Shown in pieces: positions 34,012-61,668 of a DNA stretch of 64,000 nucleotides; within the stretch, counting starts at the first letter, position 1; the number at the start of each line of letters is the position of its first letter. The notes under the pieces were generated by a model. It saw only the letters and a program-made list of their open reading frames with translations, was not told where the DNA came from and ran no database searches. This stretch comes from an uncultured delta proteobacterium (lineage in GTDB: Bacteria; Desulfobacterota; Binatia; UBA9968): NCBI GenBank assembly GCA_963737905.1, contig CAVTUQ010000004.1, forward strand, positions 28,206 through 92,205, in the 5' to 3' direction. A program made the translations under genes and the position numbers.

Positions 34012-34981
34012 ATGGCAACTAAGAGAGAGAATCCAACTGAGCTCGTCCCTCTCCTCCGCGCGATGTGGCTCATTCGCGCATTCGAAGAAAAAGTCTCTGC
34101 TCTCTACGCCATGCATGAGATCTTGGGTTTGCTCCACTTGGGTATCGGCCAAGAGGCCGTCGCCGTAGGAACCTGCAGCCTACTTCGAGCCGACGACTAT
34201 GTCTTCGGCGGCCATCGCTCCCACGGCCACGCTATCGCCAAGGGGGCCGATATTAAGCCGGCTCATGGCGGAAATCGCGGGGCGGGCGAGCGGCTACTGT
34301 GGCGGCAAGGGTGGCTCGATGCATATCGTCGCGCTCGACGCGGGCTTTGTCACGGCGACGGGCGTGGTGGGGGGCACTATCCCCCTTGCCCTAGGCGCGG
34401 CTTTCGTTGCCAAGGAAAATGGCAAAGGGCAAGTCGCCGTTGTCTTTTTCGGCGACGGGGCGGGCCAGGCCGGCGCGTTTCACGAATCGCTCAACATCGC
34501 GAGCCTTTGGCGGCTACCCGTTATCTTCGTTTGCGAGAACAACGGTTACGCCGAGTTCACCCCGCTCTCCTCCCACACCCTTGTCGAGCGTCTGGCACGG
34601 CACGCCCAAACGTACAAAATTCCCAGCAGCACAGTAGACGGCAACGATCTCCTGGAGGTGCGCGGCGCCATGGCCAAAGCTGTGCAACACGCGCGCACAG
34701 GTAAGGGCCCGGCATTCGTCGAATGCCTGACTCATCGTTTAAGAGGCCATTACGAAGGCGATCCGGCGAAGTACCGCGAGCTGTCGGAGCTGGCTGAATG
34801 GAAGGAAAAGGATCCCATCGCCCGCTTCACCCGTGCGCTCAAACGTAGAAAAGTCGTATCCGACAAAGACATCGCGGCCATCGAGATCGATGCACGCGGT
34901 ATAGTTGACCGGGCCGCCCAGTTTGCGCTGGCCTCCCCGTGGCCGGCGCCGGAAGAAGTCGCGAGCCAAGTGACGGCGTAA
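34012..34981 (+). pseudogene. second E1 alpha subunit copy, frameshifted
   Basis: Frame 1 reads ...GGHRSHGHAIAKGADIK, then loses homology. Frame 3 continues RLMAEIAGRASGYCGGKGGSMH...FGDGAGQAGAF...FVCENNGYA to 34981. Junction about 34256-34262. Confidence 0.75.
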
Positions 34982-40286: not shown

Positions 40287-42239
40287 ATGGCCGATAATCA
40301 CGACATAGCGCGTCCCCTAGGCGGACTCGACGAAGGGGCTGCGCTCCGGAGTATCCTCGAGGGAACGGCGAACGAGACGGGCGAGCGCTTCTTTGCAGCC
40401 CTAGTTGAAAACCTTGCACGGGCGCTGAAAACCCATGGAGCGTGGGTCACTGAATATATCCAAGAATGTCGCCGGCTGCGGGCCCTAGCCTTCTGGATGG
40501 ACGGGCAGTGGATTCAAAATTATGAGATCGACATCGCCGGAACACCCTGCGAGCAAGTCATCGACACCGGCACCTTTGTCCATTTTCCTGATAATCTCTT
40601 GGAATTGTACCCGGACGATCAGGACGCAAAAGACATCGGTGCTGTCAGTTACATGGGAATGCCGTTGAAGGATACCGACGGCAGAATTCTTGGGCACCTG
40701 GCGGTAATCGATCGCCGTCCACTTCCAGAAGAGCCGCGAGTCCTGGCGCTTTTCAACATTTTCGCGGCTCGAGCGACTGCGGAAATGCGCAGACTGCGCG
40801 CCGAGAAACAAGTTCGCGAGCGCGAAGAAAAACTACGCGGGCTGTTCGACAGTGCTATGGACGCCGTCATCGAATTCGATCAGAACTTGAAGGTGACCCG
40901 GATGAATCCCGCCGCAGAGCAAGCCTTCCATTGCGCCGCCCAACAGGTGATCGGTGAAGATTTCACCAGTCTCGTCTCGAAACAGGGCCAAAAAAAGCTC
41001 AGGAGCCTAATTCAGGAACTTGGCGCCGGCACTCCGGGACGCCGGTCCTTATGGATTCCGGGGGGGCTTCAAGCCTTGCCGGTCGGCGGAGAGGAATTTC
41101 CAGCCGAAGCGACTTTGTCGCGCTTTGAGATTGAGCGGCAGAGCTTCTACTCCGTTATCCTGAGGAACATCAATGACAAACTCGAAGCCGACCGCAAAAT
41201 TCATTCGCTCACGGCAGAAGCGGCGTATCTGCGAGAAGAGATTAAGAGCATCTACCGGTTCGACCAGACCCTAGGCCAGAGCCAAGCCTTGAAGCGTGTT
41301 TTGGAAGACGTCGAGCAGGTGGCGGTCACGGACACGACGGTTCTGATTCTTGGCGAGACCGGCACGGGCAAAGAACTGATTGCCCGAGGGATTCATGGGG
41401 CGAGTCGACGGTCCGACAAGCCGCTCATCACGATCAACTGTGCCGCCATCCCAGCGGCGCTTATGGAGAGCGAATTTTTTGGACATGAAAAGGGCGCCTT
41501 TACCGGGGCGACTCAAAAACGGGAGGGACGTTTTGAGCTAGCGGATCGTGGAACGATTTTTCTCGACGAGATCGGCGAACTGTCCCTCGACTTGCAGGCT
41601 AAAATCCTGCGCGTATTGCAGGAGGGAGAGTTTGCGCCCGTCGGCAGTTCCCAAACGAAAAAAGTTGACGTTCGGGTGATCGCCGCGACGAACCGCGATC
41701 TCAACCAAGCCGTGAGAGACGGGGGCTTCAGAGAAGACCTCTACTATCGATTGAACGTTTTTCCCATCGAAGTACCGCCTTTGAGAGACCGCGATGATGA
41801 TATTATCCTGCTCGCGTCCGCCTTTGCAGCCAAATTCGCCCAACGCATGGGGCGCAGGATTGAACCGTTGTCTGCGGAGTCTGAGTCACGGCTCAGGGCC
41901 TACGCGTGGCCGGGAAACGTGCGCGAGTTGCAGAACGTCATTGAGCGCGCGGTCATTACCTCTCGGGATGGCCATCTCAATCTCGACCGTGCTCTGCCGG
42001 ATGCCGGCGGTCAGACAATTCCTGGAAGGCGGCCGGCAGAAGAGACAACACCGGTAGCTTCAAACCGCATTCTTCGAATTCGCGACCTGCAACAACTCGA
42101 GCGCGAGAATATCCTGCGTGCTCTGGAATCCACAGCGTGGCGCGTCGCCGGAAAGGACGGCGCCGCCGATCTGCTCGGCATGAATCCTTCGACGCTCAAC
42201 TCCCGCATCAGGGCGCTAGGCATCCGGCGACCACAGTAA
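40287..42239 (+). CDS. sigma-54-dependent transcriptional activator (GAF-PAS-AAA+-HTH)
   Basis: 650 aa. GETGTGKE Walker A, GAFTGA sigma-54 contact loop, ELQNVIERA, and a C-terminal Fis-type HTH. Confidence 0.9.
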   Translation: MADNHDIARPLGGLDEGAALRSILEGTANETGERFFAALVENLARALKTHGAWVTEYIQECRRLRALAFWMDGQWIQNYEIDIAGTPCEQVIDTGTFVHFPDNLLELYPDDQDAKDIGAVSYMGMPLKDTDGRILGHLAVIDRRPLPEEPRVLALFNIFAARATAEMRRLRAEKQVREREEKLRGLFDSAMDAVIEFDQNLKVTRMNPAAEQAFHCAAQQVIGEDFTSLVSKQGQKKLRSLIQELGAGTPGRRSLWIPGGLQALPVGGEEFPAEATLSRFEIERQSFYSVILRNINDKLEADRKIHSLTAEAAYLREEIKSIYRFDQTLGQSQALKRVLEDVEQVAVTDTTVLILGETGTGKELIARGIHGASRRSDKPLITINCAAIPAALMESEFFGHEKGAFTGATQKREGRFELADRGTIFLDEIGELSLDLQAKILRVLQEGEFAPVGSSQTKKVDVRVIAATNRDLNQAVRDGGFREDLYYRLNVFPIEVPPLRDRDDDIILLASAFAAKFAQRMGRRIEPLSAESESRLRAYAWPGNVRELQNVIERAVITSRDGHLNLDRALPDAGGQTIPGRRPAEETTPVASNRILRIRDLQQLERENILRALESTAWRVAGKDGAADLLGMNPSTLNSRIRALGIRRPQ

Positions 42240-42254
42240 ATCTAACTATCGGAT

Positions 42255-42292
42255 GTGAGATCTCACGACCCATCGTGACGAGATCTCGTCAC
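42255..42292. promoter_or_regulatory. candidate enhancer (UAS): palindromes GTGAGATCTCAC and GTGACGAGATCTCGTCAC
   Basis: Perfect 12-bp (42255-42266) and 18-bp (42275-42292) palindromes sharing a GAGATCTC core, 85-120 bp upstream of the -24/-12 element. Confidence 0.45.
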
Positions 42293-42376
42293 TAGCGAGA
42301 TTTCATAATTGCTTTAACAACGCTCTCACCTCCCTAACTCATTGGTTTTCTGAAAGAAACCCGGCTTTCGATGACC

Positions 42377-42392
42377 TGGCATGCTAGCTGCT
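42377..42392 (+). promoter_or_regulatory. sigma-54 (-24/-12) promoter candidate TGGCATGCTAGCTGCT
   Basis: GG/GC spacing matches consensus exactly. Lies 47 bp upstream of ATG 42439, directly downstream of the activator gene. Confidence 0.6.
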
Positions 42393-42438
42393 CTATTGTG
42401 TTTCCATCAACTTCACTCAACCAAGGGAGGAAAGGAAA

Positions 42439-43350
42439 ATGCAACACAATTATTCATACCAATCGGCGCTCGAAGTCTCGGACCGAATCGGCTGGAAAGT
42501 GGACGATATCATCGGCGGCGACAAGCGGCTCGACTTCACCAAACCGTTCATGCCGGAATCGCTGGCTCAGGTGCAGCGGCTTTCCTTTCTCACCCCTGAC
42601 GAACAGCTGACTCTAAACCAGATTCGCGGGCATGAGTATCTTGCCATGTTCGGTCTCGTCGAGGAGTTCATACTCCCCTACGTGGTGGACCATGCGCGGT
42701 CGCAACTCTCCGGAGACGACTACCGGGTGCGGGCCTTGCTCCAGTTCGCCGGTGAAGAGGCAAAGCATATCCATCTTTTCAAGCGCTTCCGGCAGGAGTT
42801 CGAGAACGGGTTCGGCAGCAAATGCGACTTCATCGGTCCCGCCGAGGACGTGAGCCGGTTTGTCCTTTCCCATAGTCCTTTGGGAGTCGGAATTGCGATT
42901 CTACACATCGAGTGGATGACTCTCAGGCACTACATCGAGGGCGTCAGGGATAATCAGGATCTCGACCCCCAGTTCAAGAGCCTGCTCAAGAACCACTGGC
43001 TGGAGGAATCCCAACACACGAAGCTCGACACATTGATCCTGGAATCGGTGGTAAAGGAATCGACCCCCCAAGAGATCGACCAGGCTTTCAAGGAATACGG
43101 CGAGATTGGTGCCTTTCTCGACCAGGGGATCCAGCAGCAAGCGGAGTTAAATGTGGAAAGTTTCGTTCAAGCGAGCGGAAGAAACCTCTCCAAGAGCGAG
43201 CGCGAAGAGATGAACAACGCCGTTATCAAGGGCATGCGCTGGACCTATCTTGGAACCGGCATGACGCATCCAAACTTTCTCGCCACCGTCGAGGAGATTA
43301 AGCCTGAAGCGAGAAAACAGATAGAGGAAATGGCGCCAGTGTTTTGTTGA
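42439..43350 (+). CDS. ferritin-like di-metal carboxylate protein (R2lox / AurF-like oxygenase superfamily)
   Basis: 303 aa. ExxH motifs GEEAKHIHLF and LEESQHTK plus VEEF and HIEWMTLRH. QFAGEEAKH resembles R2-like ligand-binding oxidases as recalled. Confidence 0.55.
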   Translation: MQHNYSYQSALEVSDRIGWKVDDIIGGDKRLDFTKPFMPESLAQVQRLSFLTPDEQLTLNQIRGHEYLAMFGLVEEFILPYVVDHARSQLSGDDYRVRALLQFAGEEAKHIHLFKRFRQEFENGFGSKCDFIGPAEDVSRFVLSHSPLGVGIAILHIEWMTLRHYIEGVRDNQDLDPQFKSLLKNHWLEESQHTKLDTLILESVVKESTPQEIDQAFKEYGEIGAFLDQGIQQQAELNVESFVQASGRNLSKSEREEMNNAVIKGMRWTYLGTGMTHPNFLATVEEIKPEARKQIEEMAPVFC

Positions 43351-43385
43351 GCAAGAATGCAAAATGAAAAATGTAGGAGGAAGCT

Positions 43386-43763
43386 ATGTCAGTCGCAGAA
43401 ACAACAAAAGAAATGCCTTTGACGAAAGACATTCTAGACCACCACTTAAAGTGTTTTGGCGAGGGCGACCTCAAGGGTATTCTATCTGACTATGCCCCGG
43501 GTGCCGTCCTGTTCACGTCGGACGGACCCCTCAGGGGAGTCGACGCAATTAGGCCGTTGTTCCAGGCGATGATTGCGGAGTTTGGAAAGCCTGGCGCAGC
43601 GTTCAGCATGAAGCAGCAGTTTGTCGAGGGCGACTATGCCTATATTCTATGGGGCGCGGAGACTGCAGAAAACTTGTACGAGATAGGCACGGACACGTTC
43701 GTCGTGCGCGACGGCAAGATTGTGGCCCAGTCATTTACCGGCAGGATTACGCCCAAAGGCTGA
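43386..43763 (+). CDS. SnoaL-like / NTF2-fold protein
   Basis: 125 aa. Size and pattern (HHLKCFGEGDLKGILSDYAPGAV...FVVRDGKIV) are typical of the NTF2-like fold. Confidence 0.6.
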   Translation: MSVAETTKEMPLTKDILDHHLKCFGEGDLKGILSDYAPGAVLFTSDGPLRGVDAIRPLFQAMIAEFGKPGAAFSMKQQFVEGDYAYILWGAETAENLYEIGTDTFVVRDGKIVAQSFTGRITPKG

Positions 43764-43811
43764 AAACAAGTCTTTATTCCGGTGACAAAATTTAACGAGG
43801 AGGCGAGTATC

Positions 43812-45195
43812 ATGACAACGCAAACGTCGAAGGTGAAAGAAGAGCTCAAAGACAAGATCAAGGGGAACGTCCTGGTTCCCGAGGACAGCGGTTACAAGGA
43901 AGCTCGGCAGATATGGAACGCCATGATCGATCGGCGGCCTGCGGTTATCGTGCAGTGCGTACAGGCTGACGATGTTCCACCAGCAATCCAGTTTGCGCGA
44001 AAAAGCGGGCTTGAACTTTCAATTCGCGGTGCCGGACACAACATCGCAGGCAATGCCCTCTGCGACAACGGCGTTATGATCGATTTTTCAAGAATGAAAA
44101 GCGTTCGCGTAGATGCCGGGAAACGGCGCGCCTATGTCGAGCCTGGGGCGACCCTCGCGAATTTCGACGAAGCGGTACAGGCGCACGGCTTGGCGACGCC
44201 GGTGGGGATCAATTCCACGACAGGCATCGCCGGTTTAACGTTGGGCGGCGGCTTCGGGTGGCTGACTCGCAAATACGGCATGACGATCGACAATCTCGTC
44301 TCCGTCGACATGATCACGGCCGATGGCAAGAAATTGCGGGCAAGCCAAAGCGAAAATGCGGACCTTTTCTGGGCTATTCGCGGCGGCGGGGGAAATTTTG
44401 GCGTCGTCACCCAATTTGAATTCCAACTTTTCCCCGTGGGACCCGAAATCGTCGCCGGCTTGATCGTTTTTCCGTTCAACCAGGCAAAGCAGATACTGAC
44501 CAAGTATCGTCAATTTGTAAATTCAGCACCCGAGGAGCTCAACGTCTGGGTGGTGCTCCGCAAGGCGCCTCCGTTGCCTTTTCTTCCGGAAAACGTGCAC
44601 GGCAAGGAGGTCGTTGTGTTGCCGGTCTTTTACTGCGGGGCCGCAGCGGAAGCAGAGAAACTGATCGCTCCTCTGCGCGCTTTCGGTAATGCCCACGGCG
44701 AGCATATCGGCGCACAGCCCTATGTTGCGGTGGCAAAAGGCCTTTGACCCTTTGCTGACGCCGGGCGCGAGAAATTATTGGAAGTCGCATAACTTCACGG
44801 AGCTTGCTGACGGAGCGCTGAATTCCATTATCGAGTTCGCCGGGAAGCTGCCCTCCCCGCAGTGTGAGATTTTCATAGGGCTGATTGCCGGTGCGCCCAA
44901 CCGCGTCGCCCCTAACGCGATGGCCTATGGTCATAGGGACGCGAAATTCGTGTTGAACGTGCACGGACGATGGGACGAAGCGAAGGATGACCAGAAGTGC
45001 ATTGGGTGGTCACGCGAGTTTTTTAAAGCCAGCAAGCCCTACGCGTCAGCCGGCGCTTACGTAAATTTTATGACCGACGAGGAGGGCGACCGCGTCGCCG
45101 CGGCTTACGGATCCAACTATGATCGCCTGGTGGAAACCAAGAAACGCTACGATCCGGAAAATATTTTTCACTTGAATCAGAACATCAAACCTTGA
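43812..45195 (+). pseudogene. FAD-linked oxidase with BBE-like C-terminus, frameshifted
   Basis: FAD_binding_4 motifs (SIRGAGHNIAGNA, TTGIAGLTLGGGFGWL), then a frame change at about 44728-44731. Continues WQKAFDPLL...YVNFM...YDPENIFHLNQNIKP. Paralogue at 56825-58184. Confidence 0.75.
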
Positions 45196-45411
45196 AGCGG
45201 ATGTCGTTATGGAAGGTTTCTTACTCTTCGCCCTCATACTGTTCTATGTGGCTATTTCCTTTGGTCACTCATAGAGCGAACATTACAACGACCAAAGTCG
45301 TTTTGCTGGGCTATAAAGAAAGAAGACCATGACCAGACCAGTAATCAAAACCGTGACGCCATCAGCGGAAAAATTTAGGGGGATCCACATCCCTCATTCT
45401 TAAATGATGCC

Positions 45412-46248
45412 ATGGCAACAACGTGCCCGGTCGACTTCGATGTAGATAGATTGCGCCGGCTCGTGCGTGTGGAGTACGATCGGCTGGCGCGGGAACCCAG
45501 GGGAAACTTTCATTTTCATCGAGGACTGGAGTATGCTTGCCGCATACTCCGCTATGACCCTGAGGAGTTGGCAACAATCCCATCCGAATGCACCGCGTCC
45601 TTTGCCGGTGTCGGCAATCCGCACCGCATCGGTCCCATCGAACCGGGTGAAACAGTCCTTGATATCGGGTGCGGCGCCGGCATGGATCTTTTGCTGGTCG
45701 CGCGCCGCGCCGGCCCTTCGGGAAAAGCGATTGGAGTGGATATGACCCCCTCCATGCTCGAGCTGGCCAAGCGCGGCGCACTAAAGGCCGGCTTATGGGA
45801 GAACACTGAGGTTCGCCGCGGCACGGCCGAAGAGCTGCCGGTGGCGAGCGAGAGTGTCGATGTTGTTATCTCTAACGGCGTCCTCAATCTCTCACCGGAC
45901 AAAGATCGCGCCTTTCGCGAGATATACAGAGTGCTGCGTCCGGGAGGACGCTTGTATCTCGCCGATGTAGTGATTCAAAGAGAGCTTTCACTCGCAACGC
46001 GAAGCGATGTCGATCTTTGGGCAGCGTGAATTGGCGGCGCTCTGCCGGAGGTGGAGCTTTATGAAATCACCGCTGGCGTTGGTTTGACGGATGGGAAGAT
46101 CGTCGAGCGCTTCGATTGTTATGAAGGTACCTCTGCTAAAGCAAAGTTATCCAAAGACCTTCTCATTCACGGCGTGAATTTTCTCGCCCGCAAACCGTCG
46201 CGCTCAAGAGGGGCCAACGATCAGCAAACGTCGGACAGGCTAGGATAG
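45412..46248 (+). CDS. ArsM-like class I SAM-dependent methyltransferase with in-frame TGA (candidate selenocysteine at codon 206)
   Basis: VLDIGCGAGMD SAM motif. ORFs 45412-46029 and 46051-46248 share one frame, separated only by TGA 46027-46029 at the ArsM LW-x-G-C-x-x-G-A-L cysteine position. A hairpin at 46039-46057 follows. Confidence 0.55.
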
Positions 46249-46253
46249 TCGGG

Positions 46254-47168
46254 ATGGAAAAATCATCCGAGAAAGAAATCACCACGGCGACTCTTACAGT
46301 TTTCGCCCTTATCGCCTTTGCCGCCAACTCGGTCTTATGCCGATTGGCGCTCGGCCAGTCGGCCATCGATCCTGCAAGTTACACGGCGGTCAGGCTGATC
46401 ACAGGAGCGGTCACTTTGTGGATCATCACTCGCTTCCTCCGGGCCGGATCCTTCGGGAAGTCCGGCGGCAGCTGGATTTCTGCAGCAATGCTTTTTCTAT
46501 ATGCGGTAACCTTTTCTTTCGCCTACCTAAGCTTGAGCGCGGGAACTGGCGCGTTGATTCTATTCGCAGCGGTGCAAATTACGATGATCGCGGTTGGCCT
46601 CTATGCGGGCGAAAGACCGGAGCTATTGGAGTGGCTGGGATTATTCATCGCCATTGCTGGCCTGATTTATTTAGTGTTTCCCGGGATCACCGCCCCGTCC
46701 ATCCTCGGATCGCTACTCATGGCCACCGCCGGCATCGCCTGGGGTGTTTACTCTCTCAGAGGCCGAGGAGCCAGTGATCCTGTCAGTGTCACCACGGACA
46801 ATTTTCTACGCACAGTGCCCTTGGCCCTCGGTCTCATCTTGTTATGGCTATCGACGCTGACTATAACCCCGATGGGTTTTCTCTGGGCAGCCCTATCCGG
46901 ATCCATCACGTCGGGAGTCGGCTATGTCCTATGGTATGCGGCGCTGCCTCGCCTGACAGCGACACGGGCGGCCACGGTCCAGCTAGCACCGGCACCGCTA
47001 GCAGCACTTGGCGGAGTTGTCGTTTTATCTGAAGCGATTAGTCTGCGTCTGGTGATATCGTCTGTGGTGATTCTGGGTGGGGTCGGCCTGGCGGCTTCCC
47101 GCCGCACGTCCGTTTCCAAGCGGCCAGAGTCTTTAACCGCTGTCGTACAGACTTCCATCAGAGACTAA
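46254..47168 (+). CDS. EamA/DMT-family transporter
   Basis: 304 aa, 10 hydrophobic segments, two EamA-like halves. Confidence 0.8.
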   Translation: MEKSSEKEITTATLTVFALIAFAANSVLCRLALGQSAIDPASYTAVRLITGAVTLWIITRFLRAGSFGKSGGSWISAAMLFLYAVTFSFAYLSLSAGTGALILFAAVQITMIAVGLYAGERPELLEWLGLFIAIAGLIYLVFPGITAPSILGSLLMATAGIAWGVYSLRGRGASDPVSVTTDNFLRTVPLALGLILLWLSTLTITPMGFLWAALSGSITSGVGYVLWYAALPRLTATRAATVQLAPAPLAALGGVVVLSEAISLRLVISSVVILGGVGLAASRRTSVSKRPESLTAVVQTSIRD

Positions 47169-47328
47169 AAGCGACTTAAGATCTCACAGCAAACAGAATT
47201 TTTCGTTGCCGAAGTTCTTTAATCGACACGCGGCACATTCTGTATGTTTCACATGTTTCTCGGCGTCCACGTCCGACCGTGGATGCTCAACTCATTTTTG
47301 AACTGGGAGTGAGATCTCAGATGATGAC

Positions 47329-47778
47329 TCATGCGAGGCGGACAACGATCACCCCCATCACTACCATGCAAACCAGTTGTGTAAAAAAGAAAATAAACCT
47401 CAGGGTTACTGCGAAGTTGGTAGGCGTGAGGGCGATATGGACGATGGTCTGGCAAACGCGGGCCGCCAGCAATAGGATCGCCAACCGATCCAGCGTAACG
47501 CTCCGGATGCCGGTCGCGACAATGGCCACCACCACCGCCGTGTAGAGTGGCAGGTTCTCCAGACAGTTGGCATGAGCGCGCATGGCCCGCTGGTACCAAT
47601 CGCTTCCATGTGGCTCGTCGGCCGGAAATTCCTTAATCGCTGCTCGTCCCGTCAAAATCCGACTCCATCGATACCAGCCGATGGTGCTCAGAAGCGTGAT
47701 TGCAGTCCACGTCGCAAAACCCAACAAGACCCAGATCGGGATTGACACGAATCCAACCCTCTGCTTGAACTGGGCCAA
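47329..47778 (-). CDS. MAPEG-family membrane protein
   Basis: 149 aa, 4 TM segments. RAHANCLENLPLY is a motif typical of MAPEG. Confidence 0.65.
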   Translation of the reverse strand: MAQFKQRVGFVSIPIWVLLGFATWTAITLLSTIGWYRWSRILTGRAAIKEFPADEPHGSDWYQRAMRAHANCLENLPLYTAVVVAIVATGIRSVTLDRLAILLLAARVCQTIVHIALTPTNFAVTLRFIFFFTQLVCMVVMGVIVVRLA

Positions 47779-53243: not shown

Positions 53244-56200
53244 TTATGTAAGTTCCTCCAGTAATGCTTTTGCCTCTTTCAAGTCGGCCGTGTCAAACCC
53301 TTCAGTAAACCAGCCGTAAATATCACCTAGCAATTTTCGCGCTTTTCCTGTCTTACCTTGCTTCTGCCACAGCCGACTCATGCTCATCGCTGCCCGTAAC
53401 TCCAACGACTTCGCTTGCTGTCGGCGTGAAATCTCGATAGCCTCCGAAAAACTCTCCTCTGCAGAACGGTGAACGAACTCCGCTTTCTGCATTCCAGGCT
53501 CTGCATTCAAAAGAAGCTCGCCTTTCAGCCGATGTAGCTCTGCCTCGTAATACCACCCTCCGTTTTTGTGCGACCAAGCTACTTCGGACAGCACAGTCAA
53601 TCCCTCCTCTGCCTTCTTCACTTTCCCATAAATCTTCGCTAGGAGAACCAGATAATGCGACCGGGCCACTTCTGCGCCTGTGGTCTTATAGGCGAGCAGA
53701 CCCTGGCACATTTGTGCAACGCCTTTCTCTGCTGTTTGTCCTTCATCGGCCAGTGCCCAACCGCGTAGGATGGTTCCCTGCGTAAACCAGTAAGGGAACC
53801 CATACTTGCTTGCGAGCGCCAGGAGTGCCTCCGCTCGCTCTTGGACTGCTTCACGCTCTCGACGGAATTCATGGAGCCAGGCAGCATAGCCCAGGGCCTC
53901 AGCTAAGGTTAGGGGATGAGACAATTCCTCGGCGAGAGCTAGCGCGTCTTGACTTCTCTTCAGGGCCCGGTCCGGATAGCCAAGCAACCACAGCGCCAAG
54001 GCTCCAAAGTCCCTGCAGCACACCCCGGGGTCGTGCCCACCATAGAGAAAGGCCAGGACGCGGTGCTGTGGGGAATCATACAGATCAATCCCATGTTCCG
54101 AGTGTGCTCTGGCTAGAGTCAACTCTCCAATAAAGAACGAGTTGGCCCACATCGCGTGATGGGCTTCGAGGAGAAGACCGGCGTCACGCAGGTGCTGAGC
54201 CAGACTAAAGAGTTGCGTGGCTAGATCTCTCGCTGTTTGCAACTCTCCCCGCTGTAGATGAAGTAGCCATAGTCCCCACAATACGGGGAAAAGCTGCGAG
54301 GTCTCGCCTACCTGTTGGCACAATTCCCGTGCCCGCAGGTACACGGGTTCGATTTCTGGCGCGCCGAAACCTTTGGTTGACTGGAGCGCCGGGCCAAGGG
54401 CGAGCAGCAGAGCGAGCTCTTGCTTTTCGCGTTCGTCACTTAACGGCAACGTCTCGACGACTTCCAACGCTCTCGTGAAATAGGCCACCGCCTCTAAGTT
54501 CGCCGAACGCGATAACGCCTTGGTCCCGGCTTCGCGGAGATACATAACCGCTTTGTCCCACACCTCTCCCCTGACGGCATGGTCAGCCAAGCGCTCCACT
54601 TGTTCGCCGAGTCTGTCCCGGTAAAGCTGCTCCGTTATTTCGACGATTCGCGTATGAAGCGCGCGCCGGCGATCTTGCAACAGCGTTCCGTAAGCAACCT
54701 CGTGTGTAAGGGCGTGCTTAAAGGTGTATTCGATATCCGGAAAGAGACTCGTCTCGTAAAGAAACTCCGCGGCCTGAAGCCGAATCAGTCCACGTCTGAC
54801 TTCTTCTTCGGACTGATCCGCGATGGCTTGAAGCAGCGCAAATGGAACGTCCTTGCCTATAACGGCCGCCGATTGAAGAAGACGTTTCTCATCTAGCGCA
54901 AGTCTATCAATCCGAGCGGCTAACACTGCCTGTACGGTTGCCGGTACCTGCGTGCTCTCAATCGGTCTGGCAAGACGATAATTTCCCCGCTCGCCCGCTA
55001 GCAGTTTGGTCTCCACTAATGTGCGAACGCTCTCCTCGATGAAAAAAGGGTTCCCTTCCGTTCGCTCGATCAATAGCTTTTTCAATGGCGCGAGGCTCGA
55101 ATCACTTCCCAAAAGTGCCTGGAGCAGTTCCTCCGCGCTTTCAGGCGGCAGAGGATCAATCCGGAGTTGGCTGTAATAGGTCTTGCTCCCCCAGCCGTGC
55201 TGGTACTCCGGCCGATAGTTGACCAACAGCAGAAGTCGCGCAGTCGGAAGACTCTCAATCAAGCTATCCAGGAAAGACTGGGTCTCCGAATCGATCCAGT
55301 GAAGATCTTCGATGACCAAGAGCAAAGGTTGGATTTGGCTCTCTCGTAGCAGCAAACGCTTGATTGCCTCTAGGGTGCGCTGGCGGCGCTGTGGAGGATC
55401 CGAGCTCTGCCACACTTGGTCCTCGAGCGTCAAGTCTAAGAGCGCCAGGAACGCAGGCAGTGTGGGCTCTAGAGACTTATCCAGTGTCAGGAGCTTCCCT
55501 GTAACTTTCTCGCGAATCTTCCGCACATCGTCTCGGTCTTCAATGGTGAAGTATGCCTTGAGCAGGTCGATCACTGGAAGATACGCAGTCGCTTTGCCGT
55601 AAGAGACCGAGCCGCTTTCAAGGATAAGCCAGTCCACGGTACGGCGAGAATGAGCGAACTCCCAGAACAGACGGGACTTGCCTACCCCCGGCTCACCGAC
55701 AAGGGCTACCACCTGGCCGTGGCCGCTGCCTGCCTTATCGAGAGCGCGGCGGAGAGTCTCAAGCTCAGTATCGCGTCCGACGAAGCGCGTGAAACCGCGC
55801 GCGGCTGCTGCTTGCAGCCGAGAACGTGTGGCTCCAACTCCAGTAACCTCATAAACTTCCACCGGCTCAGTTAGTCCCTTGACGTTGACCGGGCCAAGCG
55901 ACTTCACCTGCACATAGCCTTCGGCTAGTTGTAGTGTGTCCGCGGTCATCATGATCGACCCCGGCATCGCCATCTGTTCCATCCGTGCGGCCAAATGGGT
56001 GGTCTGCCCAACGGCCGTGTAATCCATCTTCAGGTCGCTGCCGATCGATCTGACTACGACTTCTCCAGAATTCACGCCAACTCGAATCTGAATCGGAATG
56101 CCCTCAGTTCTCTGAATGCTCTCTGCATACTTCTTCACCGACTCCTGCATCCTGAGCGCGGAGTAACAGGCTCGCACTGCATGATCTTCATTCGCGAGCG

Positions 56201-56639
56201 GCGCACCAAAAAGCGCCATGATGCCGTCGCCCATGACTTGATTGACGGTTCCCTCATATCGGTGCACCGCTTCCATCATGTGCTCGAGCACCGGGTCAAG
56301 AATCTTCCGCGCTTCCTCCGGGTCACGGTCCGCAAGTAACTCCATCGATCCTTTTATATCCGCGAACAGCACCGTCACCTGCTTGCGTTCACCTTCGAGG
56401 GCGCTCTTGGAAGTCAAAATCTTCTCGGCGAGGTGTTTGGGGGTATAAGTTTCGGGAGAAATGAAGCGCGTGGCTATAGCCGGTTGAGCACTCACCGATT
56501 GCCCACACTCGAGACAGAACTTCGCCCCCGCAGGAAGCTCTGTGCCGCACGCGGCGCATTTTAGGGCCAGCACAGTTCCGCACTCGAGGCAAAATTTTGC
56601 CTGCGGCGGATTCTCCTGCTGGCAGCGCAGACATTTCAT
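53244..56639 (-). CDS. double Zn-ribbon / class III nucleotidyl cyclase / STAND (AAA_16) ATPase / TPR protein
   Basis: 1131 aa. CLRCQQENPPQAKFCLECG and CAACGTELPAGAKFCLECG; cyclase VTVLFADIKGS...MGDGIMALFG; Walker A GEPGVGKSRL; Walker B LLVIEDLHWID; long TPR-like C-terminus. Confidence 0.85.
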   Translation of the reverse strand: MKCLRCQQENPPQAKFCLECGTVLALKCAACGTELPAGAKFCLECGQSVSAQPAIATRFISPETYTPKHLAEKILTSKSALEGERKQVTVLFADIKGSMELLADRDPEEARKILDPVLEHMMEAVHRYEGTVNQVMGDGIMALFGAPLANEDHAVRACYSALRMQESVKKYAESIQRTEGIPIQIRVGVNSGEVVVRSIGSDLKMDYTAVGQTTHLAARMEQMAMPGSIMMTADTLQLAEGYVQVKSLGPVNVKGLTEPVEVYEVTGVGATRSRLQAAAARGFTRFVGRDTELETLRRALDKAGSGHGQVVALVGEPGVGKSRLFWEFAHSRRTVDWLILESGSVSYGKATAYLPVIDLLKAYFTIEDRDDVRKIREKVTGKLLTLDKSLEPTLPAFLALLDLTLEDQVWQSSDPPQRRQRTLEAIKRLLLRESQIQPLLLVIEDLHWIDSETQSFLDSLIESLPTARLLLLVNYRPEYQHGWGSKTYYSQLRIDPLPPESAEELLQALLGSDSSLAPLKKLLIERTEGNPFFIEESVRTLVETKLLAGERGNYRLARPIESTQVPATVQAVLAARIDRLALDEKRLLQSAAVIGKDVPFALLQAIADQSEEEVRRGLIRLQAAEFLYETSLFPDIEYTFKHALTHEVAYGTLLQDRRRALHTRIVEITEQLYRDRLGEQVERLADHAVRGEVWDKAVMYLREAGTKALSRSANLEAVAYFTRALEVVETLPLSDEREKQELALLLALGPALQSTKGFGAPEIEPVYLRARELCQQVGETSQLFPVLWGLWLLHLQRGELQTARDLATQLFSLAQHLRDAGLLLEAHHAMWANSFFIGELTLARAHSEHGIDLYDSPQHRVLAFLYGGHDPGVCCRDFGALALWLLGYPDRALKRSQDALALAEELSHPLTLAEALGYAAWLHEFRREREAVQERAEALLALASKYGFPYWFTQGTILRGWALADEGQTAEKGVAQMCQGLLAYKTTGAEVARSHYLVLLAKIYGKVKKAEEGLTVLSEVAWSHKNGGWYYEAELHRLKGELLLNAEPGMQKAEFVHRSAEESFSEAIEISRRQQAKSLELRAAMSMSRLWQKQGKTGKARKLLGDIYGWFTEGFDTADLKEAKALLEELT

Positions 56640-56824: not shown

Positions 56825-58184
56825 TCAGGCCGGTCGGATATTCTGATTCAGGTGGAACAGATTAGCCGGGTCATACTTTGCTTTCAGCATTCGCAGGCGC
56901 TGGTAGTTCGGCCCGTAAGCTGCCGCGACGGCGTCTTCTCCATCATCGTCCCCCAGATAGTTTACGTAGCGCCCTGGCGTGAAGCTGGGCCGCATGAAGT
57001 CATATGATTGCCGCGCCCACGCAATATTCGGAGCGTTGTCGGCCGGTTCGAGCCATTCGGAGACGACCAGAAAGTTATAGCCCTCGTGCCGGTGTGGGAA
57101 CGCCGTCTCGCTCACGCCGACACGCGTCGCTGCGCCGTGGATGTGCTCCAGCACCAGGCCGCTCATCGGCGAGGGACATGCCGCGAACTGAGAAACTAGC
57201 GTGTCGATGGCCCCATCGCTGAGTTCACCTATGAAATTGGATTTCCAGTAGTTAAGGGCGCCCCGAGGGAATCCGGCGTCCAGCATCCTATTCGTCTCCT
57301 CGTAGCTTGTTGGACCGATGGAATCCAGAATCGGCGTGCCGAACTTCTTAATCGGCTCAAGGGCAGCCTCCGCTTCGGCTAGAGGACCGCAGTGGCATAA
57401 AATGATCACGGCGATCTGAGCGCCGTCGGGCGCGTGCAGCAGCGCGCCGAAGATCGTGAGGTCGTCGGTAAGTCCCGCCAACGTGATTTCCCGGAAAAAT
57501 TTCAGCACATCGCGAGCACGATCGAAAGGGTGAGCGATGAGGCCGCTTGTGACCGTCCCAACCGGATGTAAGCGGTACTCCAACCATGAGACAGCGCCGA
57601 AGTTACCGCCGCCGCCTTGAAGTCCCCAGAAGAGATCGGCGTTTTCCTCCTTGCTTGCCCGCACGATGTCACCCGAAGCAGTAACGACCTCCGCCGAAAG
57701 AATTGTCCATCGCCAGCCCATACTTGGCCATGAGCCACCCGAGGCCGCCACCGAGCGTCAAACCCGCGATGCCAGTCGTGGAGATCACGCCGCCGGTGGT
57801 CGCTAGCCCATGTGCCTGCGTTTCGCGGTTGAATTCACGCCAGGTCACTCCGCCCTGAGCGCACGCCGTGCGACGGACCGGATCAACGTGGATGCCCTTC
57901 ATGAGCGACATGTCGAGCATCAGCCCATCGTCACAGACAGCCCGGCCGGCAACGTTATGACCGCCGCCGCGCACCGCCAATTCGAGTCCGTGAGTGCGCG
58001 CGAAGTTTACCGCGTCAACGATGTCAGCGTTACCGACGCAGCCGGCAATCAACGCAGGGTGCCGATCGATCATACCGTTGTGGACCCGCCGTACTTCATC
58101 GTACCCGGATTGATCGGGACGCAGGAGCACGCCGGAAAAGCGAGCGGACAGGTCAACGATACTGGCTTGATCGAGCGCAACCAT
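56825..58184 (-). pseudogene. FAD-linked oxidase with BBE-like C-terminus, frameshifted (paralogue of 43812-45195)
   Basis: AVRGGGHNVAGRA, TTGIAGLTLGGGLGWL, then a frame change at about 57698-57703. Continues LSAEVVTASG...YVNYLGDDD...YDPANLFHLNQNIRPA. Confidence 0.75.
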
Positions 58185-58326: not shown

Positions 58327-61300
58327 TTAACTCAACTGCTCAAGTTCCGCTTCCGCCTTTTCCAGCCACAATCCCATTTCTATCTCCCGCATCATCGCGA
58401 CGCCATTGGCGAGATGCATCTTCGCTTGCTCCAGATCACCTGTTCGCCGATGCAGTTTTCCCAAACCAACGTGGCAGTGAGCGATGAGCGGGCGCATGCG
58501 AAGTTCATTGGCTAATGCCATCGCGTGATCATAATGATTTTCCGCCTTTGCCGTATCCGGAACATCGGCGTGCAAAAGACTCTCGCCGAGGACGTAAAGT
58601 GACAACGCTGCGTAGCCGCGATACCCTTGGGTCCGGGAAGATTCAAGCACCTGGTTAGCAAGCGAGGTGGCTTCTTCCAGTTTACCGACCAAAGGTAGCC
58701 CCGCGCCAACTGTACACGCGGCCAAACATTCCTAGCTCGCTCGTTGGTCAATTCCAACAGGGGTATCGCCTCGCCGACACGCCCAGCCGCAGCAAATGCA
58801 TTACCGAGAGCAACCGCCACTCGGGGAAGATTCTGACGGATGTCCCATAAGCGACAAACTTCCAGGCTCCGCTCTAGTAGCGGGATCGCCTTTTCCAAAG
58901 CGCCCTTCCTAAAATGCAGGCATCCGACCTCCAGATACGCAGTGTTTAGACTAAAAGGGTGATTGGCCACCTCGGCAATACGAATCGCTTCGTCGCCGTG
59001 AATAGCTGCTTCGCGAAACTCGCCAACTTCCGCCAGGCCCCATGTCAAATGACAGAGCGATCCAATCGACGCAACAAAGGCTAAGCCAAAGCGCTCGTAA
59101 ATCTGATCGCCTACTATAGCATCGACATTCTTCTTAAAATGGTAAATAGCCAGATCAAAGTCACCGATCGATCGATGTGCCGACCCAAGAAAATGATTTG
59201 CCTGAACCTGGAGGCTAAAATTGCCAATTGCTGAAGCGATCGCGAGGGCCCGTTCTCCCTTCTCAATAGCCTGAATGGGATCATCTCCCGCCTGCCCAAA
59301 GTAACCGGCCAAATAGGCTGAAATTTGCCCGAGCCGGCGTTGGTCATTCAAAGTCTCAGCGAGCACTTCCGCTTCGCGCATGCGTTCTAAAACTTTGGCT
59401 TGTTCTCCAAGAGGCTGGAGGGAGCTACGCATGTGGATACGAATATCTATAGCTTGCTCGATCATTTGACGGCTTTCGGGCAGATGCTTGGGCACTTCAA
59501 GTGCCCGATCGAAATAGCTCACCGCTTCACGGTGCGCAGAGCGATCCGCCGCTTTGGCGCCGGCTTGCCGTAAGTAGGTCAACGCCTTCTCCCACAGCTC
59601 GCCGTGGAAACGCGTGGTGCGCAAGCAGCTCAACCTGCTCGGCCAATCGATCTCCGTAGAGCCGTTCGATGGCTTCGACGATTCTGGCGTGCAGCGTGCG
59701 CCGCCGCTCTTGTAAGACACTGCCGTAAGCAACCTCGTGGGTCAGCGCATGTTTGAACGTGTATTCGAGATCGGGAAACAAGCGGGTCTCGTAAACAAAC
59801 TCGGCCGCTTGAAGATGACCGAGCTCGCGCCGGAGTTCTTCTCCGGATAATTCAGCGATGGCCTGAAGCAAGACAAACGGCACATCCTTGCCGATCACCG
59901 ACGCCGACTGAAGCAGACGCTTTTCATCGATTGACAGCCTATCGATGCGCGCGGCCAATACGGCGTGCACTGTCGCCGGTACCTTTGTAAGATCGAGCGA
60001 ACCGGCGAGACTATATCGGCCTCGCTCGCCGACGAGAACTTTAGTTTCGACCAATGTCCGGACACTCTCCTCCAAGAAAAACGGATTGCCCTCGGTTCGC
60101 TCGATCAAGAGTTGCTTCAGCGGCTGCAAGTTCGCCTCGTCCCCCAACACCCCTCGGAGCAATTCCTCGGCACTCTCGGGTGGCAGCGGATCGATCCGCA
60201 GCTGGCTATAATATGTTTTGTTCCCCCAGCCATGGCGGTATTCCGGGCGGTAATTCGCAAGGAGAAGAAGCGACGCAGTGGGCAAGCTATCGATCAGGCC
60301 GTCTAAGAAAGACTGAGTCTCCGAATCGATCCAATGCAGATCTTCGAACACCAAGATCACGGGTTGCACCTGGCTCTCGCGCAGCAGCAAACCTTTGATC
60401 GCGCCTAAAGTCCGCTGCCGGCGCTGGGACGGGTCTAGGTTCTGCCATTGTTGATCTTCAACCGCAACGTCTAACAATGACAGCAATGCCGGCAACGCGG
60501 GCTCTAAAGTCTTATCCAATGTCAGTAACTTGCCGGTGACTTTCTCGCGGACATCGCGCTGAGTGTCACGATCCTGGATTTTGAAATACGCCTTCAGCAA
60601 ATCAATTACAGGAAGGTAAGGCGTAGCTTTTCCGTAAGAAACTGAGCCCGATTCAAGGATCAAGCATCCCTCGGTACGATGCGAATGAGTGAACTCATAA
60701 AACAGTCGCGATTTCCCAACTCCAGGCTCACCCACCACGGCAACCACCTGACCATGCCCGGTTTGTGCTCGCTCTAGCGCTTTGCGCAGTTGCTCCGTCT
60801 CGGCGTCGCGCCCGACGAATCGTGTAAGTCCGCGCGCAACCGCTGCTTGCAAGCGGGAGCGCGCAGGTCCGGCACCACTGATCTCGTACACCTCCGCCGG
60901 TTCGCTCATCCCCTTCACATTAACCGGACCGATTGATTTCACTTGAACAAAGCCCTCGGCAAGGCCAAGGGTATCAGCAGTTATCAGAACCGACCCCGGC
61001 ATCGCCATCTGCTCCATCCGAGCAGCCAAGTGCGTGGTCTGACCCACCGCTGTGTAATCCATCTTCAAGTCGCTCCCGATGGACCGCACAACGACCTCGC
61101 CTGAGTTCAAACCAACTCTTATCTGGATAGGAATTCCCTCGGTCCGCCTTACTCCCTCAGCATACCTCTTAACCGACTCCTGCATCCTGAGCGCCGCATA
61201 GCATGCTCGGACAGCATGGTCTTCATGCGCCAGCGGCGCGCCAAACAGCGCCATAATGCCGTCGCCCATCACCTGATTGCCTGTGCCTTCGTAGCGATGA

Positions 61301-61668
61301 ACTGCCTCCATCATGTGTTCGAGAATCGGATCGAGAAGCTTCCGCGTTTGCTCCGGGTCGCGGTCCGCAAGTAACTCCGTTGAGCCCTTCATATCAGCAA
61401 AAAGCACTGTGACTTGCTTGCGCTCGCCTTCGAGCGCGCTCTTCGACGTAAGAATCTTTTCGGCGAGGTGCTTGGGCGTGTAAGCTTCAGGAGAGTTAAA
61501 CCGTACGAGAATAGGTCCGGCGACAGGATGCGCGCACTCGGGGCAAAACTTTGCGGTCGCGGAAAGCTGAGTGCCACAGTTCACGCAGCTGCGGGCCAGC
61601 GGAGCCGCACACTCCTCGCAGAACTTTGCTCCGGATGGATTTTCATGCTGGCAGCGAGAACACTTCAT
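58327..61668 (-). pseudogene. second Zn-ribbon / cyclase / STAND / TPR paralogue, two frameshifts
   Basis: The first 690 aa or so are collinear with 53244-56639 (same Zn ribbons, cyclase, Walker A/B). Frames change at about 59604-59607 and about 58700-58735. The TPR tail is diverged. Confidence 0.8.

Follow-up and report, generated by a model that had tools for sequence, protein, structure and literature searches.

The gene examined here lies on the forward strand of a 64,000-nucleotide (nt) stretch of contig CAVTUQ010000004.1 (hereafter, the window) from an uncultured delta proteobacterium of the lineage Binatia, and encodes a methyltransferase whose reading frame is interrupted by an in-frame TGA. 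The open reading frame (ORF) 45412-46029 is closed by TGA 46027-46029, and the same frame then stays open until TAG 46246-46248; the start of the second ORF, 46051-46248, is merely the first GTG of the open stretch past the TGA. The original prediction, which described two ORFs in one frame parted only by this TGA, is borne out in this respect, and 45412-46248 is a single gene of 278 codons. Its read-through product consists of 278 amino acids (aa), carries the context DVDLWAA-U-IGGALPEVEL around the TGA (U, selenocysteine) and ends with NDQQTSDRLG. We conclude that this product is very probably a single ArsM/AS3MT-fold methyltransferase dependent on S-adenosylmethionine (SAM), in which the UGA at codon 206 is recoded to selenocysteine (Sec). 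Given that TGA is the ordinary stop codon of other genes in the window (e.g., at 3345, 43761 and 45193), the genetic code is standard and the genome is not recoded.

Codons 1-205 (45412-46026) match the Pfam domains Methyltransf_31, Methyltransf_11 and Methyltransf_25 (E = 1e-31 to 1e-24); only such generic SAM-methyltransferase domains were found in Pfam, and the 278 aa comprise a single domain. This part includes an N-terminal Cys5-Pro, the motif FHFHRG (residues 33-38), which is invariant in two alignments (22 and 27 sequences), FAGVGNP, the SAM motif GCGAGMD (86-92) and SNGV. Codon 206 (46027-46029), predicted to be read as Sec, opens the motif U-I-G-G (UxxG), and codons 207-278 with the TAG (46030-46248) contain ERFDC(Y/F), which includes Cys236, and GVNF(F/L)ARKP. 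In a phmmer search against PDB sequences, arsenite methyltransferases were the best matches, with E = 2e-29 for CmArsM (4fr0/5eg5). The TGA aligns on the C of CmArsM GECLGGAL, which by a count along the chain numbering is Cys224, the catalytic cysteine that had been named when the TGA was first noticed, and which corresponds to Cys206 of human AS3MT. The two other ArsM cysteines, reported at the same time as substituted (GVGNP, NGV), are indeed replaced: Cys72 of CmArsM (FYGCG) corresponds to Val67 (FAGVGN) and Cys174 (SNC) to Gly156 (SNGV). The same holds for the whole family, in which, among the 80 members examined, the Cys174 equivalent is Gly in 79 and Ser in one, and the Cys72 equivalent is Val or, in a few Sec-form loci, Ile, Leu or Met; neither is ever Cys.

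An AlphaFold model was made for a Cys homologue that is 81% identical to the window protein (predicted local distance difference test, pLDDT, 86.9; predicted template modelling score, pTM, 0.88), and in a structure search with this model the 13 best PDB matches were all ArsM/AS3MT proteins, with template modelling (TM) scores of 0.64-0.73 and 30-35% identity. Past position 206, the model shows a helix and the two final beta strands (226-234 and 253-260), mostly with pLDDT of 87-97. Because these two strands lie past codon 206, a product of 205 aa would be an incomplete fold.

The codon 206 column was read in a locus scan that covered one genome per GTDB species (loci L002-L081). In 22 other species-level genomes it is TGA, at 25 loci in all, and with L001 and the window there are 27 TGA loci. 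A Cys codon stands in 45 loci (TGC in 36 and TGT in 9), with TCA, TGG and CGC in one locus each. Sec or Cys occupies this column in 73 of the 80 family members, and Cys in 46 of the 46 Cys-clade loci that were aligned. A protein search with the joined sequence gave a similar picture: 63 of the 120 best matches (80-99% identity) stop exactly at ...LWxx, and 38 of these 120 are full length with Cys at column 206. No homologue has a natural C-terminus at this column, and the Cys homologues run through it continuously. Past the TGA, the frame remains open for 55-85 codons in all 27 TGA loci, with the conserved sequence ...ERFDC(Y/F)..TS...GVNFFARKP, and the third codon position is the most variable one. 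A midpoint-rooted neighbor-joining tree has Sec clade B at its base and pairs Sec clade A with the Cys clade as sister groups. The homologue check suggested in the original prediction has thus returned Cys (45 loci) or TGA (25 other loci) at the column, and the findings that it had named beforehand as contrary to Sec, as far as they were looked at (a different residue in homologues, a natural C-terminus at this position), came out in favor of the Sec reading.

This distribution bears directly on an alternative reading, in which the TGA arose by nonsense mutation or wrong base calling, or marks a decaying pseudogene, in an error-rich assembly. The window, seemingly a long-read assembly, does hold at least four broken genes (E1_dh, two FAD/BBE oxidases and a cyclase/AAA/TPR protein), and to this extent the caveat about lesions attached to the original prediction stands; it does not extend to the TGA, because the lesions are all frameshifts and none is a substitution, whereas the TGA itself is conserved in homologues, recurring across the 25 loci and 63 protein clusters down to approximately 57% identity. 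It is also present in eight assemblies of a near-identical gene: the exact 205-aa product of the window belongs to a 90% identity cluster of 8 members, all 205 aa long, from NCBI, ENA, JGI and Logan, and a Logan contig (L090) has a TGA and hairpin identical to those of the window and differs almost only by indels. Given the same TGA in 25 other loci and 63 truncated proteins, a downstream frame that is always open and conserved and a TGA-specific structure behind it (see below), the TGA is not a lesion, and we regard the probability of this alternative as practically negligible.

A true stop at this TGA would yield a 205-aa methyltransferase and possibly a separate 65-aa peptide from GTG 46051. 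This is the product that the gene callers of all public sources predict; if the TGA encodes Sec, all public gene calls cut the protein at 205 aa, and the same mis-call is found in dozens of lineages of metagenome-assembled genomes (MAGs) from soil and sediment, including Binatia, Thermodesulfobacteriota, Syntrophobacteraceae, Verrucomicrobiia, Acidobacteriota and Myxococcota. A genuine stop appears extremely unlikely, considering that the truncated protein would, according to the model, lack the last two strands of the Rossmann-type sheet, that conserved residues (IGGALPE) are encoded in the 21 nt from the TGA to the GTG, that the Cys homologues are continuous and that no conserved start codon or ribosome-binding site is present for the second ORF.

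Behind the TGA lies a hairpin (46039-46057, forward strand) that begins 9 nt past the UGA and consists of a 5' arm, GCUCUGCC (46039-46046), an apical loop GGA (46047-46049) and a 3' arm, GGUGGAGC (46050-46057). The stem has 8 base pairs (bp), including two G-U pairs, the hairpin taken alone has a free energy of -10.1 kcal/mol, the spacing from UGA to loop is 17 nt, and GCUCUGCC-GGA-GGUGGAGC is the core of the minimum-energy fold. A comparable hairpin at the same kind of spacing follows 8 of the 999 TGA triplets on the forward strand of the window (0.8%). An Rfam scan of 45300-46400 with E-values up to 10 returned two chance matches to small RNAs and no family of the selenocysteine insertion sequence (SECIS). 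The SECIS of E. coli fdhF carries a bulged U, and no such bulge is found in the window hairpin. The published model of the bacterial SECIS (bSECIS) specifies a loop of 3-9 nt with a G, a stem of 4-16 bp, a spacing of 16-37 nt and a minimum free energy (MFE) of at most -7.5 kcal/mol (PMC13188914, Fig. 2), and the hairpin agrees with it in all four respects (a 3-nt loop starting with GG, 8 bp, 17 nt and -10.1 kcal/mol). The sequence C-GGA-G also fits the consensus N1-G-[G/U]-N-N2 of the bSECISearch model, although the loop, provided that the closing C-G pair is formed, is down to the minimum of 3 nt. A SECIS-like hairpin with a GGA loop and bacterial geometry, as originally described, is accordingly present; it is a SECIS of textbook type and changes nothing in what is known about recoding.

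Given that the fold signal from the single sequence is modest, weight was placed on the comparison with homologues, for which an alignment of the 27 TGA loci (A2) was used. RNAalifold recovered the same stem from this alignment, with 96.3% of the cells paired as opposed to 27-51% in slid controls, and its covariation score was reached by none of 500 shuffles. At the apical pair 31-37, 22 loci have C-G and 5 have U-A, and at the apical pair 32-36, 23 loci have C-G and 3 have U-A; these compensatory changes from C-G to U-A coincide with amino acid changes from P to S or L and from A to T. The GGA loop is invariant among the TGA loci, the MFE of which ranges from -8.0 to -13.4 kcal/mol. The structure is specific to the TGA forms: on average, 7.7 of the 8 pairs form in the TGA loci compared to 4.6 of 8 in the 45 Cys loci, and at the third positions of codons +4 to +9, the entropy amounts to 0-0.8 bits in the former, where synonymous sites are almost fixed, versus 1.0-1.7 bits in the latter, where they are free to vary.

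The TGA itself might be enclosed in an additional 3-bp mini-helix (46024-46035, forward strand) formed by 46024-46026 with 46033-46035 (A2 columns 10-12 and 19-21), which would set UGAAUU (UGAAUY across loci) in a 6-nt loop. In the middle of this helix, 14 loci (clade A) have a C-G pair and 11 (clade B) a G-C pair, and the pair is broken in two TGA loci, one of which is L022. The swap represents one clade-level event, Ala205/Gly208 versus Gly205/Ala208, and the comparison points only weakly to a mini-helix at this place.

Under the Sec reading, the hairpin located 9 nt downstream of the UGA would recruit SelB-GTP-Sec-tRNA(Sec) to the ribosome, Sec would be inserted, and translation would carry on to complete the two beta strands that end the fold. 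Sec206 would then take the place of the metalloid-binding Cys224 of CmArsM, beside the SAM site, where it would most likely serve as a soft nucleophile or as a ligand that keeps the substrate for methyl transfer.

A protein of this kind is already known, as ArsM-type methyltransferases with Sec make up an established family of selenoproteins, catalogued since 2007. Arsenite methyltransferase selenoproteins of the NF008823 type, with the motif UxxG, are exemplified by WP_011987699.1 (PMC13188914), and a passage in the same source cites Fomenko et al. (2007, Science 315:387) for the Sec arsenite methyltransferase family; in work on this family, Cys157 and Cys207 of mouse AS3MT have been pointed to as active-site cysteines, and a 2016 survey reported Sec arsenite methyltransferases in 39 organisms (PMC5029168). 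The window protein resembles these enzymes in having the same fold, the closest sequence family, a U-x-x-G site, a Sec/Cys pair and a SECIS just downstream within the coding region, and differs from them in falling below the cut-off, in lacking the two As(III) cysteines and any ars gene context, and in its association with a putative di-iron partner. Its best NCBIfam matches are ArsM-type models. With Cys in place of Sec in the query, the score against NF008823 is 215.9 bits, compared to a cut-off of 263; the three curated models of Sec-containing proteins among the best matches, NF047649, NF041537 (ArsM/AhpD) and NF041536 (ArsM/DUF2284), gave 192.3, 218.5 and 203.1 bits against cut-offs of 460, 510 and 575, respectively, with their methyltransferase domains matching residues 9-234 at 192-218 bits (E = 1e-57 to 1e-64). 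All three models, which come from Haft and Tolstoy (2025), are listed with a UxxG Sec motif. Unlike NF047649, a double selenoprotein of the methyltransferase/UXPK-star type, the window protein has no C-terminal UXPK tail and only one Sec, and unlike the fusion selenoproteins NF041537 and NF041536, it has no AhpD or DUF2284 domain. What is distinctive here, judging from sequence comparison, is a Sec-using ArsM-fold subfamily without the other As-binding cysteines, below all curated cut-offs and located beside an AurF-like protein in a putative sigma-54 operon.

Several observations weigh against Sec insertion at this codon. A 71-nt region of the single window sequence is no more stable than its shuffles (z = -0.5). 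The published UxxG Sec site is equated with Cys224 on the strength of a motif match rather than an alignment, and the SAM motif GCGxG is likewise a CxxG. The genes for SelA, SelB, SelD and tRNA-Sec are absent from the 64 kb of the window and the fetched flanks: ARAGORN found no tRNA-Sec in the window and 37 loci, Pfam searches with 40 window ORFs found no SelA, SelB or SelD, and in tblastn neither the window nor any of the loci was matched by SelA, SelB or SelD of E. coli, a result that is uninformative for the whole genome. Finally, codon 206 is GGA, TCA, CGA, TTA or TGG, besides TGC, in some relatives, which would not be expected for a strictly essential catalytic Sec. With respect to the decoding machinery, indirect support for Sec decoding comes from the presence of two paralogous genes with TGA and hairpin in each of three MAGs, and also from the deltaproteobacterial type of several of the MAGs that carry the TGA, as this group has been described as selenoprotein-rich. 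A literature search found no paper linking Binatota with the use of Sec, and a screen of the window for a second selenoprotein among stop-interrupted frames was too noisy for any candidate to emerge.

The three MAGs in question (two of Binatia and one of Syntrophobacteraceae) each hold two paralogous Sec forms (L005 and L072, L003 and L078, L009 and L076), one of clade A and one of clade B, which are approximately 57% identical and have the same SECIS sequence.

In close full-length relatives, residue 206 is G, S, R, L, W or C. At the DNA level, the codon was confirmed as GGA (L082, L083), TTA (L084), TCA (L085, L014), TGG (L015), CGA (L087, L088) and TGC (L086), each of which is one base away from TGA, with no preference for Cys. 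An artifactual origin of the Gly variants through translation with genetic code 25 was considered and rejected, given the real GGA codons in the DNA of P0003 and P0005. The sense-codon variants retain 6-8 of the 8 hairpin pairs and show more substitutions at conserved columns (1.68) than the Sec forms (0.65) and the Cys forms (0.29; p = 0.0007), a count that is partly circular because the Sec and Cys forms themselves served to define the columns. The variants are dispersed over clade A, mostly with a TGA form as the nearest neighbor, which suggests approximately ten or more independent conversions, only two of them to Cys. We read the sense variants as cases of decay or functional shift after the loss of Sec decoding, and not as an indication that residue 206 is unimportant. 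With U, C, G, S, R, L and W all occurring naturally at a single active-site position, these proteins could serve to test the contribution of the selenol.

The same variants are relevant to another possibility, namely that the UGA is read through without Sec, a near-cognate or suppressor tRNA supplying Trp, Cys or Arg and the hairpin acting as a read-through stimulator. The tolerance for G, S, R, L and W at the codon, the hairpin relic with 6-8 of 8 pairs and the absence of Sec machinery from the window and flanks are all compatible with it, and the SPS1 gene of insects, in which a UGA with a conserved hairpin is read through and Sec has a non-Cys replacement, is a precedent that we counted in its favor. 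Nevertheless, this scenario appears very unlikely: Cys is found in all 46 aligned Cys-clade loci, the hairpin agrees with the bSECIS consensus down to the invariant GG that opens the loop, the enzyme family already has known Sec forms with this motif, constraint is relaxed in the non-Cys variants, and several carriers are MAGs of the selenoprotein-rich deltaproteobacterial type. Sec remains the preferred identity of residue 206 and, given that the two Sec clades have the same SECIS and that the Cys clade is nested, Sec may, tentatively, be ancestral in the family.

What the enzyme acts upon is a separate question. CmArsM (4fr0, 6cx6), CrArsM (5evj) and human AS3MT (8xt7) share with the window protein the SAM-binding core and the Cys224/Cys206 site, which is kept as Sec; unlike them, the window protein has no counterparts of Cys44, Cys72 and Cys174, and its family is approximately 270 aa long, as compared to 370-380 aa, with an FHFHRG motif and an N-terminal Cys-Pro of its own. 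Cys72 of CmArsM is Cys61 in human AS3MT and is needed for the first methylation step, and Cys174 is Cys156, an As(III)-binding residue. Apart from Sec/Cys206, the conserved cysteines among the 80 members are Cys5 (78-100%, depending on the Sec or Cys clade), Cys87 of the SAM motif and Cys236 (80-95%), of which Cys5 and Cys236 are candidate extra ligands. On the basis of these alignments, the family of approximately 270 aa is a distinct ArsM-fold family that would be unable to bind As(III) by the canonical three-cysteine mode. Because the two other As(III) ligands are absent throughout the family, the substrate or the binding mode is probably unlike that of canonical As(III) methylation, in line with the initial remark that the chemistry might differ. 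Sec use in the ArsM superfamily would thereby extend to a subfamily without canonical As(III) binding, in which the lone Sec/Cys site would have to bear the chemistry.

It can still be argued that this is a genuine ArsM, active in As(III) detoxification, in which Sec simply replaces Cys224: ArsM/AS3MT proteins are the best matches in both sequence and structure, the JGI name is 'arsenite methyltransferase', and the conserved Cys5, Sec/Cys206 and Cys236 could in principle make a three-thiolate As(III) site. We consider this unlikely, given that the equivalents of Cys72 and Cys174 are never Cys, that the NF008823 score stays below the cut-off and that no ars genes are found in the flanks, where the neighbors encode AurF-like, FAD/BBE oxidase, SnoaL, OsmC, GNAT and EamA proteins. 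Specifically, none of arsR, arsC, acr3, arsB and arsH is present in the flanks of the window, L042, L049 and L052.

The neighborhood of the gene is a cluster on the forward strand that would be controlled by sigma-54 and includes an AurF-like di-iron protein and an EamA exporter. It is preceded by a gene for a GAF-PAS-AAA+ sigma-54-dependent transcriptional activator (40287-42239), which is syntenic with the cluster in relatives. A -24/-12 element of the sigma-54 type, TGGCAT-N5-CTGCT (42377-42392), lies 47 nt 5' of the first gene of the cluster, and two or three palindromes of the GAGATCTC type (approximately 42254-42300) lie 5' of this element, so that both are situated between the activator gene and the gene for a 303-aa protein. 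By itself, the element is not above chance in the window; L001, L085, L009 and L013 have an element TGGCA(C/T)-N5-CTGCT at the corresponding position, and variant forms occur in L022 and L006. Palindromes of the same type also precede the gene for the 303-aa protein in relatives, and the arrangement as a whole is conserved in these first four loci. A scan of 42200-47400 for sigma-70 promoters and terminators gave results at chance level only.

The first gene (42439-43350) encodes the AurF-like di-iron-carboxylate protein of 303 aa, with invariant E75, EExKH, E158 and HWxEExQH, that is, the di-iron signature E...ExxH...E...ExxH. A weak match to AurF was detected in 8 of 9 members (best E = 6e-7), with no Pfam or NCBIfam match above the cut-off and no match among PDB sequences, and a single-sequence AlphaFold model had a pLDDT of 44 and was unusable. 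This gene adjoins the methyltransferase gene in loci of clade A and, within the Cys clade, in 26 of 52 loci, including those of the cultured Caballeronia arationis and Plasticicumulans lactativorans. In the Cys-clade locus of Thioalkalivibrio denitrificans (L049:2078-2923), a gene for a PEMT/ICMT-like membrane methyltransferase precedes the methyltransferase gene and replaces that of the di-iron protein.

Between the di-iron protein and methyltransferase genes, the window contains a SnoaL-like gene (43386-43763) and a FAD_binding_4/BBE oxidase gene (43782-45195), which is frameshifted at approximately 44716-44765. The gene for an EamA/DMT-family transporter (46254-47168) starts 6 nt past the methyltransferase stop and is probably co-transcribed with it; an EamA gene also follows the methyltransferase gene in L002, L004, L007, L009, L023, L083 and L014, and an exact look-up of the EamA protein gave no match. 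In clade A, the order of genes is activator, 303-aa protein, optional SnoaL, FAD/BBE oxidase, OsmC and GNAT genes, methyltransferase, optional EamA and a 215-aa hypothetical protein. The neighboring OsmC genes are all Cys forms and none is a Sec form.

The conserved AurF-like partner is a lead to the true substrate. We tentatively entertain the possibility that the methyltransferase is not an arsenic enzyme at all and represents the Sec form of an uncharacterized two-gene module, which would combine the AurF-like di-iron protein with a single-Cys/Sec ArsM-fold methyltransferase and would be under sigma-54 control in this clade. The selenol or thiol at position 206 may then act on another soft substrate, for example a species of selenium or tellurium, a thiol, or an organic intermediate made by the partner in oxidized form. 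Sec may be ancestral in such a module, and the loss of Sec decoding may repeatedly turn the UGA into any one-base sense codon, not specifically Cys, which, if true, would be an unusual mode of selenoprotein loss.

The broken genes of the window, at least four in number and all split by breaks of the indel type, probably reflect errors of long-read assembly rather than pseudogenes. The breaks are located at approximately 34200-34260 in the gene for the E1 dehydrogenase alpha subunit, at 44716-44765 and 57702-57739 in the two FAD_binding_4/BBE oxidase genes, and at approximately 59527-59732 in a gene for a zinc-ribbon/cyclase/AAA_16/TPR protein, which has an intact paralogue at 53244-56639. The in-frame TAG mentioned in the original prediction is probably the one at 34166, upstream of the frameshift in the E1 dehydrogenase gene; in L001, the E1 gene is also broken, at a different place. 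The genes at 53244-56639 and 58512-61668, both on the reverse strand, are tandem paralogues that encode a double-zinc-ribbon/adenylate-guanylate cyclase/AAA_16/TPR signaling protein, and each of them adjoins a paralogue of the FAD/BBE oxidase.

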